Shown: positions 15,402 through 20,033, counted from the stretch's first letter. The stretch: DNA of 64,000 bases from an uncultured delta proteobacterium (GCA_963771325.1 CAVYTJ010000004.1:28740-92739), one strand, 5' to 3'. Made by a program: numbers and translations. Notes: generated from the letters alone by a model not told the origin.

Positions 15402-15878
15402 TCACGCGCTGCTCGCCACACCGCTCGGCGGGTTTTCGTTCAAGACCAGCCAGTACAGCCCGAGTTGACGGACTGCTTCGACGAACTGCTCGAAGTCGAC
15501 CGGTTTGCGCACGTAGCTGTTGGCGCCCAGGTCGTAGCCATGCGCTATATCCCTCTCCTCCCTGGAGGAGGTCAGGATAATCACGGGAGTGGTCTTGGTC
15601 CGCTTGTCCGCGCGCAGCTTAGCCAGCACATCGAAGCCATTTAGCTTGGGCAGCTTCAGATCGAGGAGAACGATTTGTGGCTGATCGTTGGGATCGCGCC
15701 CTGCATACTGCCCCGTCCCGAAGAGGTAATCGCAAGCCTCGACGCCGTCGCGCGCCACCACCACGGTGTTGGTGATATTGTTCTTCTTCAACGCGCGGAG
15801 CGTCAGCGCTTCGTCGTCGGCGTTGTCTTCCACCAACAGAATGACTCGTTGTTTATGCACTGGGATGTCCTCCCTCAT
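15402..15878 (-). CDS. single-domain response regulator (CheY-like), paralog 2 (tandem duplicate of 14900-15359)
   Basis: [45 protein letters not shown]…, about 85% aa and about 80% nt identity to paralog 1. ATG at 15878; the longer upstream ORF is Ser/Pro-rich junk. Confidence 0.8.
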
Positions 15879-18039
15879 GTTCCGCAAGCGTAAACGAAAA
15901 GGTCGCCCCTTTGCCCACGGCCCCTTCAGCCCAGGTTTTGCCGCCGTGACGCTGGATGATCCGTCGCACCGAGGCGAGTCCGATTCCGGTGCCGGGGAAC
16001 TCGGTAGCCGCGTGGAGCCGCTGGAAAGTGCCGAAAAGCTTGTCGACGTAGGCCATGTCGAACCCGGGGCCGTCGTCGCGGACGAAATAGACCGGCGCTC
16101 CATTCTGCCGCGACATGCCGAGTTCGATCCTTGCCTGCGGCTTGTTCATCGTGAACTTCCACGCGTTGCCGAGCAGATTCTCGAGCACCACCCGCAGCAG
16201 GCGCGAATCGCCATGGCCGACGACGTGATCGCCAACGACGCATTCGACGTGGCGCGCGGGGTCGCCGCTCTGCAGGTCCGCCAGGACCGAACTCGCCATC
16301 GCACTGAGGTCCACGACCTCGTAGCGCATCTCGGTACGGGTGACTCGCGCCAGGTTCAAGAGGTCGTCGATCAGTTGCGCCATGCGTTTGGTTGCGGCCC
16401 GGATCCGGTCGAGGAGACCCTTGCCTTCCACATCGAGCTGGCCGGCATAGTCCTCGACCAGGGCCATGCTGAAACCGTCGATGCTGCGCAGTGGCGCGCG
16501 CAGGTCGTGCGACACCGAGTAGGAAAAAGCCTCCAACTCCTTGTTGGCGGCCTCGACCTGTACGGCATGGCGTTGTTGTGATTCGTTCAGTTCGCGGACG
16601 GTATCCTCGGCCTGTTTGCGGTCGGTGATGTCGCGAATGGCGCTGGAGACCAGTCGCCCGTCATCGGTTTCGATCGGGCTTAGACTAATCTCGACCGGGA
16701 ATTCGCTCCCATCCTTGCGCAGGCCATAAAGTTCAAGCCCGGCCCCCATCGGGCGCACCTTGGGCTCGGCGAAGTACTGGCTGCGCTGGCGCGGATGCTT
16801 CTCGCGAAAGCGCGGCGGCACCAGCTTATCGACCGAGTTGCCGAGCAACTCGGCGCGCGCGTAACCGAAGAGCTTCTCGGTTTGCGCGTTGACCAGCACC
16901 ATGCGGCCGTCCGCGCCCGCCAGCACCATCGCGTCGGGCGCGGTTTCGAGCAGCGAGCGGAAGCGCGCGTTCAGCTCCGCCACTTTTTCCTCGGCCCGCT
17001 GGCGATCGGTGATATCGCGAATCGCGCTGGAGACCAGTCGCCCGTCATCGGTTTCGATCGGGCTTAGACTAATCTCGACCGGGAATTCGCTCCCATCCTT
17101 GCGCAGGCCATAAAGTTCAAGCCCGGCCCCCATCGGGCGCACCTTGGGCTCGGCGAAGTACTGGCTGCGCTGGCGCGGATGCTTCTCGCGAAAGCGCGGC
17201 GGCACCAGCATATCGACCGAGTTGCCGAGCAACTCGGCGCGCGCGTAGCCAAAGAGTTTCTCGGTTTGCGCGTTGACCAGCACCATGCGGCCGTCCGCGC
17301 CCGCCAGCACCATCGCGTCGGGCGCGGTTTCGAGCAGCGAGCGGAACTGGTCATCGGCCTTCTTGCGGTCCACGGCGGTTTGCTTCAAGCGGTTCGTAGT
17401 GAGTCCGGCGTAGCCGCCAACCAACAGCAGCCACGTAAAGATGACGGTCCCCCCGATTCCCATCACCATCGCACTTCGATGTAAGGTCGTGCGGGCGTTT
17501 GCCGCGCGCTCTGTCAGCAGCGCCTGTTCAGCCACGGACATGGGGTCGAATTGCGCGCGGAGCTGATAAAGCGCGGCGGCGAGCTCGACGAAGATCGGCA
17601 TGCTGAGCGCGTCCTCGCGCCGTATCGTCGAGGCTGACTGAGTAGCGTCGTGCGTGAGGGTCGCCACGCGCCGCGCGGACTGGTCGACCCGATCGAGGCG
17701 GCGCTGCTGGGACTCGTTGTCCACGGTGAGGACGCGGAGCGCCGCGGCGGTACGCTGGAGTTCGGAAACACTTAGCGCGAGTTGGTCCAGGTTTTTCCGA
17801 TCTCCGCTCTGGTAATAGGTTTGTAGCGCGGCGACCGAGCCGAATGTATCTCCGCGGGCCGCGTCCAGCGTTCTGAGAACCACATCGGTGTGGGTTACCC
17901 AATCGACCCGATTGTAGTATTGGTTGATGTCGCTATAGGAAGCCAACGCCACCACGGCGGCGGCCACGATCGCAATTGCGAAACCCGCTACAAGGTACCA
18001 GCCTTCGTTTGTCTGCAATGAAAGGTTGTTCCCAGTCAT
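15853..18039 (-). CDS. sensor histidine kinase, CHASE3-TM-PAS-PAS-HisKA-HATPase
   Basis: 728 aa. N-terminal TM plus a CHASE3-like periplasmic domain, two nearly identical PAS domains, H-box SHDLRAPLRSI and an ATPase domain. Placed at the head of the RR-RR-hybrid kinase cluster. Confidence 0.9.
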   Translation of the reverse strand: MTGNNLSLQTNEGWYLVAGFAIAIVAAAVVALASYSDINQYYNRVDWVTHTDVVLRTLDAARGDTFGSVAALQTYYQSGDRKNLDQLALSVSELQRTAAALRVLTVDNESQQRRLDRVDQSARRVATLTHDATQSASTIRREDALSMPIFVELAAALYQLRAQFDPMSVAEQALLTERAANARTTLHRSAMVMGIGGTVIFTWLLLVGGYAGLTTNRLKQTAVDRKKADDQFRSLLETAPDAMVLAGADGRMVLVNAQTEKLFGYARAELLGNSVDMLVPPRFREKHPRQRSQYFAEPKVRPMGAGLELYGLRKDGSEFPVEISLSPIETDDGRLVSSAIRDITDRQRAEEKVAELNARFRSLLETAPDAMVLAGADGRMVLVNAQTEKLFGYARAELLGNSVDKLVPPRFREKHPRQRSQYFAEPKVRPMGAGLELYGLRKDGSEFPVEISLSPIETDDGRLVSSAIRDITDRKQAEDTVRELNESQQRHAVQVEAANKELEAFSYSVSHDLRAPLRSIDGFSMALVEDYAGQLDVEGKGLLDRIRAATKRMAQLIDDLLNLARVTRTEMRYEVVDLSAMASSVLADLQSGDPARHVECVVGDHVVGHGDSRLLRVVLENLLGNAWKFTMNKPQARIELGMSRQNGAPVYFVRDDGPGFDMAYVDKLFGTFQRLHAATEFPGTGIGLASVRRIIQRHGGKTWAEGAVGKGATFSFTLAEHEGGHPSA
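16580..17350. repeat. 384-bp direct tandem duplication (two copies, >90% nt identity) inside the histidine kinase gene, duplicating a whole PAS domain (128 aa)
   Basis: ctgcgctggcgcggatgcttctcgcgaaagcgcggcggcaccagc occurs at 16781 and 17165 (offset 384). The ORF track shows two identical peptides, …ALETSRPSSVSIGLRLISTGNSLPSLRRP, from both copies. Confidence 0.9.
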
Positions 18040-18470
18040 AAATTGCGATTTTGCGAGCGTCTCAAATGATCATTCAATGTACGACTCAAGAGCCGTGCCG
18101 CTAGGCACTTGTACTTTGGGCTCCTACAATTTGCTCTGGCGGTCCTCACACGACATGCTGGGCAATTGGATGACGCCGGCGGCATCAATTTGCCACGATC
18201 GGACCTCCGCGCGATCAAATCGCAACTCAGTGCGAATGAGCTTGAAAAAATCCGCAGGCGTCGCGAACCGTATTTCCGTTCTGCACGGAACCACATGAGG
18301 AGGTTTGCCGTGGTTTTTGCTTTACGCTCGATGTAAGCTGACTGAGTAGGGATCGACATAGGAATCGAGTCCCACTTGATCCAGCCCTACGGTGGCCCTT
18401 TCGCTCGCCTTTGACCACGTTACGCTAGACCATCCAAATTCTCTCGATCGCAAGGCTTGCGGAGGTCCCG

Positions 18471-19598
18471 ATGGGACACTCTCGTTTCCGTGCATCCCGG
18501 CTGGCGTGGTTCGGCGCGACCCTGCTCGCGCTTGCGATGGCCGCGCCCGCCTCGGCACAGGTACAGGTAACAATTCAGTTTGGAAGGCCGCAGGCACGCG
18601 GCTTCTCGAATAACTATCCATGGTTCAACGATGTCCCGCAGTACCGGGGAAACCAGACCTTTCAGTATTTTCTGGCGTACCATCCGGATATCGCACAGGC
18701 TCTCGCACTGAATCCCGGGCTGCTCTACGACGCCGCCTGGCGCTCGGAATATCCAGACCTGGAGCAGTACCTGAACACGCATCCTTACGAGTGGCAGGCA
18801 CTTAACAATGCAAACTGGTCCACCGGGCCGGCCGAAACCCAGTGGGGTTACTACGATAACCAGCACCAATGGCGCGATGCCTATTGGTGGCATGAGAACG
18901 ACGCCAACTGGTTTTACGACAATCATCAGGACTGGGCTTCGCTCGACTCGCGCTGGCTCATCCAGGATGGCGCCTACGACCAGCAGAACCAGTGGCACTA
19001 TGGCGAATGGTGGTACAATCAGAATCCTACTTGGGTAACGAGTAATCATCCGGTCTGGCTAAGCCAACACCAGAATTGGTCAAGCGCGTCAGAGCAGCAG
19101 AGCTATCGTCAAGCACACGCCCTGCCTGCGCAAAATCAGCTCGGGCAGCGAGCCAGCGTACAAGCTCGGCCTGTCGCACAGGCGAGCCGTCAGCAGAATC
19201 AGTCCGCCGTGCAGGCGAGCCGTCAGGAGGCTCGGCCAGCCGCGCATGCGAGCCGTCAGCAGGCCCGGCCCGCCACGCAGGCGAGCCGTCAGCAGGCTCG
19301 GCCAACCGCGCACGCGAGCCGTCAGCAGGCTCGGCCAGCCGCGCACGCGAGCCGTCAGCAAGCTCGGCCAGCCACGCACGCGAGCCGTCAGCAGGCTCGG
19401 CCAGCCGCGCACGCGAGCCGTCAGCAAGCTCGGCCAGCCACGCACGCGAGCCGTCAGCAGGCTCGGCCAGCCGCGCACGCGAGCCGTCAGCAGGCCCGGC
19501 CCGCCGCGCACGCGAGCCGTCAGCAGGCTCGGCCCGCGACGCACGCAAGCCGTCAGCAGGCTCGGCCTCAGCAGGTCGCGCGCGCCAACAAACGCTAA
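18471..19598 (+). CDS. secreted repeat protein: signal peptide, W/Y/N/Q/H-rich domain, then 15 copies of ASRQQARPAAH
   Basis: Signal peptide MGHSRFRASRLAWFGATLLALAMAAPASA|QVQ and a GGAGG RBS 5 nt upstream. The N-domain is exceptionally aromatic (WW, WY, NQNP…). The C-terminal half is an 11-aa (33-nt) tandem array. Confidence 0.75.
   Translation: MGHSRFRASRLAWFGATLLALAMAAPASAQVQVTIQFGRPQARGFSNNYPWFNDVPQYRGNQTFQYFLAYHPDIAQALALNPGLLYDAAWRSEYPDLEQYLNTHPYEWQALNNANWSTGPAETQWGYYDNQHQWRDAYWWHENDANWFYDNHQDWASLDSRWLIQDGAYDQQNQWHYGEWWYNQNPTWVTSNHPVWLSQHQNWSSASEQQSYRQAHALPAQNQLGQRASVQARPVAQASRQQNQSAVQASRQEARPAAHASRQQARPATQASRQQARPTAHASRQQARPAAHASRQQARPATHASRQQARPAAHASRQQARPATHASRQQARPAAHASRQQARPAAHASRQQARPATHASRQQARPQQVARANKR
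19180..19565 (+). repeat. 33-bp tandem repeat array (about 12 copies) gcgagccgtcagcaggctcggccagccgcgcac, coding
   Basis: Seen directly. The period is 33 nt, copies differ at 1-3 positions, and it encodes ASRQQARP(A/T)(A/T)H. Confidence 0.9.
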
Positions 19599-19654
19599 GG
19601 CCCCGTCGTACTGGCGTTAAGCGTATCGCGCTCAGCAAATGGTGAAAAAGTGAG

Positions 19655-19700
19655 CAGCTGCACCGGTCATCACGACGGTGCGGCCTTTTTTACGACCCCC
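19655..19700 (+). terminator. putative Rho-independent terminator after the repeat-protein gene
   Basis: GCACCG-N10-CGGTGC stem followed by GGCCTTTTTTAC. Confidence 0.5.
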
Positions 19701-19727
19701 GATGCCTAGAAAAAGGACGTGCCGCCA

Positions 19728-20033
19728 ATGAAATGGAGTCAGCTGCTGAATCCGCCGAGGGGAGTGGGGCGTTTGAGCTTGCTCGCGGGCTACGTTGCAG
19801 GTGAGGCCTGCTCGCTGTACGCGATTTTCATCGCGCACACGATGAGCCCGGTGAGTTATCGTATGGTCGAAAATAATTTCGAGCTTCGATCGATATACGG
19901 CAGGTATCAGGAAATTTACAACCTGGATGGGTTGGCATTCACCCTGATAGCGTCATTCGCGGTGTTCGCGATGGCATTGTGCGCCGTACGAGGAATCGCC
20001 TGGACGATCGGGGAGCGATCGTTGGCACCCTAA
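19728..20033 (+). CDS. hypothetical small membrane protein (two predicted TM helices)
   Basis: MKWSQLL…LSLLAGYVAGEACSLYAIFIA…GLAFTLIASFAVFAMALCAV. AAGGA lies 10 nt upstream of the ATG. The local GC is lower than surrounding DNA. Coding status is unproven. Confidence 0.35.
   Translation: MKWSQLLNPPRGVGRLSLLAGYVAGEACSLYAIFIAHTMSPVSYRMVENNFELRSIYGRYQEIYNLDGLAFTLIASFAVFAMALCAVRGIAWTIGERSLAP

Follow-up and report, generated by a model that had tools for sequence, protein, structure and literature searches.

The window, as the 64,000-nucleotide (nt) stretch of DNA analysed here is called throughout (GCA_963771325.1 CAVYTJ010000004.1:28740-92739, from an uncultured delta proteobacterium), carries at 18471..19598 on the plus strand an ATG-initiated open reading frame (ORF) of 375 amino acids (aa). 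It encodes a putative signal peptide, a folded domain rich in aromatic residues and a long tail made up largely of 11-aa tandem repeats, and is preceded by a conserved leader of ~115 nt. The ORF is a real gene under purifying selection and not a chance frame, because the ratio of nonsynonymous to synonymous substitution rates (dN/dS) of its N-terminal domain is 0.11-0.33 against orthologues at 68-77% identity and 97 homologous clusters, all of them unnamed, were retrieved with the N-terminal 226 aa. Four further long ORFs in other frames overlap the array, at 19027..19638 (-), 19076..19645 (+), 19089..19544 (-) and 19246..19620 (+); these are by-products of the repeat. The gene is divided as follows.

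18471..19598, plus strand: coding sequence, 375 aa, TAA stop codon included, with the dN/dS given above.
18471..18557, plus strand: Sec/SPI-type signal peptide, aa 1-29, cleavage between ASA and QV; assigned by eye from the sequence, the AxA site and the following Q being kept in the family alignment.
18648..18809, plus strand: module A, aa 60-113, predicted helical hairpins (FLxxHPxIAxxLxxNPxLL...PxLExYLxxHPxxW), distantly MHB/hemophore-like; from the AlphaFold2 (AF2) model and multi-copy relatives.
18843..18968, plus strand: W-module copy 1, aa 125-166 (WGYYDNQHQWRDAYWWHENDANWFYDNHQDWASLDSRWLIQD), an internal repeat in the sequence.
18969..19082, plus strand: W-module copy 2, aa 167-204 (GAYDQQNQWHYGEWWYNQNPTWVTSNHPVWLSQHQNW), on the same basis.
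19083..19148, plus strand: Q/A/S-rich linker, aa 205-226, whose second half (from aa 216) is predicted to be disordered, the predicted local distance difference test (pLDDT) score being <50 for residues 216-375.
19149..19577, plus strand: 33-bp/11-aa tandem array of one degenerate lead-in unit and 12 ASRQ units; from repeat detection and the sequence.

A Sec signal peptide and an unusual aromatic-rich domain were already noted in a preliminary description of this DNA, and both observations are borne out. By eye, the signal peptide comprises the n-region MGHSRFRASR, the h-region LAWFGATLLALAMAA and the AxA site ASA, with Q following residue 29. The n/h/c layout of this N-terminus (MGHSRFRASRLAWFGATLLALAMAAPASA before the cleavage site and QV after it) is as in Sec/SPI signal peptides and is kept across the homologues, and the 375-aa protein is presumably exported by this route. 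The W/Y/N/Q-rich domain spans ~185 aa; W makes up 9.1%, Y 8.6%, N 9.7%, Q 12.9% and H 4.3% of residues 30-215, where Cys is absent and I, L and V are scarce. Within it, module A (residues 61-112) is modelled by AF2 as all-helical with a pLDDT of 85-96. It is followed by two copies of a ~41-aa unit, termed the W-module, with the pattern G-x-Y-D-x2-H-x-W-h-x3-W-W-x4-P-x-W-x4-H-P-x-W, whose W, H, D and G positions are invariant in the family alignments. In copy 1 these are W134, W139, W140, H141, H152, W155, W162 and D166; H176 is likewise invariant, as are the HP motifs. AF2 renders the W-modules as a β-hairpin and four short helices (pLDDT 55-80), and paralogues have one or three copies. The core of the W-module, as modelled, is apparently aromatic and not aliphatic.

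The sole report of Pfam for the protein is Apolipoprotein (PF01442), which falls on the repeat at 19.1 bits against a cutoff of 90. NCBIfam gave zero matches, and sequence and profile searches of the PDB with the window protein, the family profile and the relative P0098 returned nothing relevant. The trimmed family profile, searched against 1.84 billion representatives, retrieved 946 proteins at E<=1e-3, 101 of them at E<=1e-30. The earlier statement that the domain has no recognisable family therefore stands for the curated libraries (Pfam, NCBIfam) but not overall, since the modules occur in 946 representative clusters and module A is linked transitively to MHB. By sequence, the protein belongs to a large, uncharacterised and largely lineage-restricted family, the W-module family, whose ~41-aa unit is previously undescribed. 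Sixty genome loci were found, and their labels are almost all Binataceae, Binatus or 'uncultured delta proteobacterium' metagenome-assembled genomes, with a few labelled Acidiferrales or Betaproteobacteria. As the relatives are mostly labelled Binataceae, the window very probably belongs to the genome of a soil bacterium of the Binataceae (phylum Binatota), a phylum for which we know of no cultured representative and no account of stress regulation.

The link to MHB domains runs through module A. Profile positions ~23-77, which correspond to residues ~60-113 of the window protein, recur in 4-8 copies in many relatives of 400-750 aa, and these multi-copy relatives match the window family profile at E 1e-69. 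Two of them (P0098 and P0100) pass PF16525 (MHB) with 65 and 38 bits against a cutoff of 27.4, and TIGR04529 with 75 and 57 bits against a cutoff of 32. The window protein itself has no match to either model at E<=10; weak MHB matches occur in 5 of 22 family members, with a best E of 0.013. The sequence comparisons thus point to module A as a distant, transitive relative of the Rv0203-type (MHB) domain and not as a demonstrated member. Like the hemophore-related proteins Rv0203 and Rv1174c (PF16525, TIGR04529), the window protein combines a signal peptide with a small all-helical domain (helices at residues 61-112), and the hairpin pattern xLxxHPxhxxxLxxxP is common to both. It differs from them in having W-modules and, behind these, a long tail predicted to be disordered, in being hosted by Binataceae and not Actinobacteria, and in that heme binding through Tyr/His ligands is here only putative. 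P0098, P0100-P0104 and others are secreted proteins in which the hemophore-related helical modules stand in tandem. His-rich tails end many small relatives (P0110, P0183, P0225, P0097), a sign that some of the superfamily may bind metal.

These observations bear on the main rival to the envelope stress function proposed below, namely that the protein shuttles or buffers a ligand in the periplasm, be it heme, a different tetrapyrrole or a metal ion. The ligand would be bound by the MHB-like module together with conserved His, Tyr and Trp side chains, and the tail would tether or deliver it. Besides the scores of the two module A relatives and the weak MHB matches in the family, this proposal is favoured by the invariance of the HP motifs and of H141, H152 and H176, by the His-rich tails (HGHGHGHD, HHHDHDHD) of many superfamily members and the His that ends each repeat unit here, and by the mycobacterial hemophore Rv0203, which is described as a secreted heme-binding protein (PMC5263243). 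Against it stand the absence of any MHB match at E<=10 in the window protein itself, the failure of both sequence and profile searches to reach the Rv0203 structure, whose heme-ligand residues are not alignable, the lack of conserved heme, iron or metal transport genes nearby, and the character of the co-regulated genes (see below), which are of stress type and not of uptake type. Some members of the hemophore-related family, moreover, are not known to bind heme. A ligand shuttle is, on balance, unlikely.

The tandem array gives a 33-bp period over 19164-19567 in Tandem Repeats Finder (12.2 copies, 88% matches, 0% indels, score 612). Where the preliminary description had counted 15 repeats, we find 12 ASRQ-initiated 11-mers at aa 238-369, with the consensus ASRQQARPAAH, preceded by the single degenerate lead-in unit RASVQARPVAQ. 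Of these 12, the first (ASRQQNQSAVQ) diverges from the others, and the last continues straight into the C-terminus. The units differ by A/T at positions 9-10, by H/Q at position 11 and by synonymous changes, so that the sporadic A/T substitutions described before are present but P/Q substitutions were not seen. In the five central units two 33-bp variants alternate as (AB)2A, giving a 66-bp higher-order repeat.

Comparison across related loci reveals that the number of units varies, as the low divergence of the repeats had been taken to imply. The closer relatives have 2, 4, 5, 7, 8, 8, 10 and 12 units, all with the QVARANKR end kept, and in the more distant P0012 and P0016 an otherwise N/Q-rich tail has 2-3 ASRQQARP units at its very C-terminal end. 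Three loci (L067, L069 and L070) share the neighbours of the window gene and have flanks that are 98-99% identical to its own; where the window has 12 units, L067 has 2 and L069 has 8, and the array of L070 contains a frameshift. The 8-unit allele is shorter by exactly 132 bp, i.e., two higher-order repeats, and the 2-unit allele comes from two independent assemblies (L067 and L068, different samples and assemblers). In-frame length polymorphism through in-register slippage or recombination is well supported by these sequence comparisons.

P0002 (L070), P0007, P0008 and P0009, all from assemblies sourced from the European Nucleotide Archive (ENA), are frameshifted in the array and read an alternative S/R/A/E/P-rich frame. 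L070, the locus fetched among these four, differs from the window by single-base gaps, and the four frameshifts are probably indel errors.

The variation raises the question whether the gene is a phase-variable contingency gene, turned on and off by changes in repeat number, as had been suggested for a surface protein. Copy number does vary among close relatives and frameshifts inside the array do occur in the four proteins named above, but since the unit is 33 bp long a change of copy number alters length and not phase. The 0% indels of the array, the retention of the QVARANKR terminus in alleles of 2-12 units and the common ENA source of the frameshifted four, which together with the single-base gaps of L070 gives them the look of indel errors, leave phase variation extremely improbable. 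An assembly artefact affecting the array or its length, or an ORF that is no real gene, is likewise very improbable. The array of ~430 bp exceeds a short read, assemblers may collapse or expand such arrays and the lengths do differ between assemblies; against this, the array is internally structured, with divergent edge units and the higher-order repeat, the frame is kept in the window and most alleles (P0001, P0003-P0006, P0010, P0012, P0016), the 2-unit allele recurs in two different samples and assemblers, more distant relatives have 2-5 units at the same position, and the N-terminal domain is under purifying selection.

In the full-length AF2 model, residues 216-375 have a pLDDT of 32-40 and are nearly without secondary structure, with one short low-confidence helix at residues 243-250; the C-terminal 160 aa are predicted to form a disordered tail. 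A long Q-rich tail is universal across 76 homologues (median ~30% Q). Its charge varies: the median net charge is +0.04 per residue, nine of the 76 tails are negative, and values of at least +0.15 per residue are confined to the clade of the window. The tails of other lineages contain different tandem repeats, other periods, or none. The basic array, which had been put forward as a functional trait, is thus not family-wide. The tails elsewhere, judged by their sequences, are Q-rich and nearly charge-neutral, so any role that depends on positive charge (binding of nucleic acid or cell wall, for instance) is probably not the conserved one.

The same data bear on the idea of a surface or envelope adhesin, whose aromatic domain would bind the cell wall or polysaccharide and whose basic array would bind anionic polymers (lipopolysaccharide, exopolysaccharide (EPS), DNA). 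The predicted export of the protein, the 21% share of aromatic residues in the N-terminal domain, and the contrast between the acidic folded domain (pI 4.7) and a tail of pI 12 whose net charge is about +27 are consistent with such a role. On the other hand, the cell-wall- and carbohydrate-binding models of Pfam and NCBIfam (CW_binding, LysM, SPOR, CBMs) gave no match at E<=10, no nucleic-acid-binding family of these libraries matched the window protein, no glycan or EPS genes are conserved nearby, and the positive charge is not conserved, as described above. The aromatic residues moreover occupy invariant positions in predicted short helices and hairpins, and the domain has few I, L and V, so that they would more likely form the core than a binding face. 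An adhesin function is unlikely; polymer binding by the basic tail of this clade is possible, but not as a family property.

The 11-aa periodicity recalls the 11-residue repeats of apolipoprotein A-I, group-3 late embryogenesis abundant proteins and α-synuclein, and the window protein has weak, composition-driven matches to ApoA-I and PF01442. In contrast to those proteins, Pro is present in every unit here, no amphipathic pattern is seen, and the tail is predicted to be coil and not helix. An apolipoprotein-like reading of the repeat was rejected as compositional in view of the PF01442 score far below its cutoff, the E values of 0.035-0.16 for ApoA-I in the PDB and the modelled coil. Hydrophilins are defined by a Gly content >6% and a hydrophilicity index >1. 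The window protein resembles them in its high hydrophilicity, the grand average of hydropathy being -1.25 (mature protein) and -1.35 (tail), but the Gly content of the mature form is 2.6%, and that of its tail 0.6%, which places it outside the definition.

The region upstream of the gene contains the leader, previously undescribed and more novel than the protein itself, with the following signals.

18334..18339, plus strand: candidate -10 hexamer TAAGCT, by sequence and by analogy with 96 leader copies.
18346..18462, plus strand: leader element of ~115 nt, probably 5' untranslated region; from nhmmer and alignments.
18461..18465, plus strand: Shine-Dalgarno (SD) sequence GGAGG, 5 nt upstream of the ATG, from the sequence.

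The leader was first seen as a conserved non-coding block when the upstream regions of the orthologues were aligned. In the window it is present as a single copy in 64 kb (18347-18462, 97.7 bits, E 2.8e-28 by nhmmer), ending in the SD, and nhmmer locates it directly upstream of nearly all orthologues and paralogues; copies were found in the window and at L007-L014, L018, L019, L022, L027-L066 and L071-L190. It consists of a 5' hairpin region, an invariant core CTCGCCTTTGACCAC (18404-18418), a variable linker and AAGGCTTGCGGAGG; across loci the core reads CTCGCCTT(T/C)GACCAC. Its identity to the orthologous leaders is 75-89% versus 34-58% for the adjacent 100 nt upstream, between loci whose synonymous sites are saturated. 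No relevant match to the 4227 families of Rfam 15 was obtained at E<=10 in either the window or a consensus-like copy.

Among 96 leader copies, a σ70-like -35/-10 pair precedes almost every one, with the -10 ending ~7 nt before the element. In the window, 6 nt separate the end of the candidate -10 from the leader's first base, and the -35 is weak (TGGTTT, ~18311-18316). Because a σ70-like -10 ends at this short distance before almost every copy, the leader is probably the 5' end of the mRNA, beginning at the +1 position deduced from the sequence. Two promoter types can be distinguished by eye (for example at L133, L079, L130, L150, L109, L102 and window 18311-18339): TTGAC(A/T)-N17-TAnnnT, and TGGCTT/TGGTTT-N16-17-GATACA/GTAGTn/TAAGCT, to which the window copy belongs. 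The two types may correspond to two sigma factors. Class B paralogues (for example L027:5680-5720, L038:5640-5690) have GCG or ACG where the window has ATG, and their likely start lies ~30-40 nt further downstream; either the conserved GAGGAGG would not be a functional SD in these genes, or they would use a non-canonical start. Other signals were considered and set aside: an ECF/EcfG-type promoter, GGAAC-N17-CGTG at ~18287, is found in the window only and in 0 of 20 orthologous upstream regions, and readings of the leader as a tRNA-like T-arm, a σ54 promoter or an internal σ70 promoter were dropped by eye, a promoter being found just upstream of almost every copy.

The evidence for a defined RNA fold of the leader, which comes from sequence comparison and folding calculations, is modest. 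RNAalifold returned weak consensus folds only, and the minimum free energy (MFE) of the window copy is not below that of shuffles (z -0.41). A hand-built model of five helices, with a 5' hairpin, two long-range helices and a pairing of CUCGCCUU with AAGGC..GAG beside the SD, is 94% paired and includes three covarying pairs (UA/UG/CG-type series), but a +1-slid control scores nearly equal. The two GAATCGA copies in tandem (GAATCGA...GAATCGA) within the first 30 nt might represent a direct repeat, and so a binding site, instead of a hairpin. The element resembles riboswitch-like and other regulon 5' leaders in its length, its position after σ70-like promoters, its ending in an SD, its conservation beyond the flanks and the at least 10 unrelated gene families that lie downstream of it. 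It differs from riboswitch-like leaders in having no Rfam match, modest covariation and an MFE no lower than that of shuffles, and it may instead act at the DNA level.

A protein-independent metagenome scan with the leader pattern yielded at least 126 copies, of which ~118 are distinct; the cargo counts given here are those among the matches listed. W-module proteins follow 42 of the ~118 copies (about a third), homologues of the small two-transmembrane (two-TM) protein described below follow 12, and a 92-aa family a further 12. Four copies each precede CsbD, RRM, glycine-zipper lipoproteins, G/Y-rich lipoproteins and peptides of 22-32 aa, three precede Thr-rich lipoproteins, and BON and DUF4142 have one each; an acyl-AMP ligase and a Crp-type regulator are among the other cargo. 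A second BON-linked copy occurs in genome locus L023. Pfam confirmed CsbD, RRM_1, BON and DUF4142 among the leader-linked genes, with the glycine-zipper near its cutoff (27.2 against 28.9 bits). The 92-aa family (MAIDDD...ELTWAKLYTKAMHKDL...; L145, L082, L121, L148 and others, 12 genes) has no Pfam match and is among the commonest cargos of the leader. Orthologues that have no leader adjoin CsbD, BON, DUF2950 and LTXXQ genes.

CsbD, OsmY/BON and OsmB-like lipoproteins are hallmark members of the general stress regulons governed by σS, σB and EcfG. Since the leader directly upstream of the window gene is common to CsbD, BON, glycine-zipper, RRM, DUF4142 and tiny membrane-peptide genes, we infer that the W-rich protein is part of a general-stress-like regulon. 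Like OsmY/BON, CsbD/YjbJ and OsmB-like proteins, it would be exported and is very hydrophilic with a disordered region; it also shares one cis-element with OsmY/BON, CsbD and glycine-zipper genes, which are its neighbours in other lineages. It has no sequence relationship to OsmY/BON, CsbD or OsmB-like proteins, however, and its stress induction is only putative.

Downstream of the gene, two further features were identified.

19657..19691, plus strand: strong, intrinsic-terminator-like hairpin (GCUGCACCG...CGGUGCGGC) followed by CUUUUUU, -19.5 kcal/mol, z = -2.98.
19719..20033, plus strand: small membrane protein with two TM segments, either 104 aa long (GTG start) or 101 aa (ATG start at 19728), a conserved downstream partner.

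The hairpin, which a consensus scan missed, stands between the W-rich gene and the two-TM gene, and by its sequence the W-rich gene looks monocistronic, with the ~115-nt leader followed by the coding sequence and a terminator. The two-TM gene lies directly downstream in L007, L008, L011, L014, L018, L022 and L067-L070, and its homologues elsewhere have their own copy of the same leader. The two-TM protein has no match in Pfam or NCBIfam, and may be a functional partner of the W-rich protein. The upstream neighbour is a divergently oriented CHASE3-PAS-PAS histidine kinase, and a β-propeller protein, PhyH and GT87 are encoded beyond the two-TM gene; none of these was retained as an operon partner, the kinase, β-propeller, PhyH and GT87 genes being syntenic only in near-identical strains. 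The kinase gene (15853-18039, minus strand) contains a 384-bp tandem duplication (16584-16883 and 16968-17267, 94% identical over 300 nt), which looks like a recent internal domain duplication that gave rise to two nearly identical PAS domains.

The explanation that we prefer, with a confidence just short of even, is that the gene product is a very hydrophilic protein exported to the envelope (periplasm) as part of a general-stress-like regulon, and that it consists of a folded head of aromatic core and a sequence-tolerant, disordered, Q-rich tail. The head would consist of an MHB-related helical module and two W/Y/H-rich units of ~41 aa, and during stress the protein would help to keep the envelope protected or organised, for instance by holding or shielding some of its components. 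The tail would act as a hydrophilic spacer, for which composition and length count more than sequence. The ASRQQARPAAH unit would have begun as 2-3 copies at the extreme C-terminus and then expanded in this lineage by slippage or unequal recombination in the 33/66-bp register. As a result, the arrays of near-identical strains now range, in frame, from 2 to 12 units, and the acidic domain (pI 4.7) bears a tail that is strongly basic (pI ~12). Several points weigh against this explanation. The leader is missing from one orthologue subclade, membership of a stress regulon would rest on guilt by association through a shared cis-element, and repeat collapse may account for part of the variation in copy number between assemblies. 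The conserved HP motifs, the MHB link and the paralogues' His-rich tails might, moreover, be signs of ligand or metal binding.

A more far-reaching version, which we regard as rather doubtful, holds that the leader represents a new class of cis-regulatory RNA that controls the general-stress regulon of Binatota post-transcriptionally, and that the W-module proteins are the chief envelope stress proteins of this phylum, unrecognised until now, with a new aromatic-core fold. If this were true, the leader could be a riboswitch, a platform for protein or small RNA binding, or an mRNA stabiliser. The leader could serve to track a stress-type regulon in metatranscriptomes from soil and peat, and it is a candidate for a new regulatory RNA. 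The tail offers a clean natural example of a disordered region whose composition is maintained although its sequence has been replaced by a tandem repeat that is specific to the lineage and variable in length. No major paradigm is changed by the locus, which turns a 'hypothetical protein' into a defined question: an abundant exported family contains an undescribed tryptophan-rich module, and this module could enter the domain libraries.

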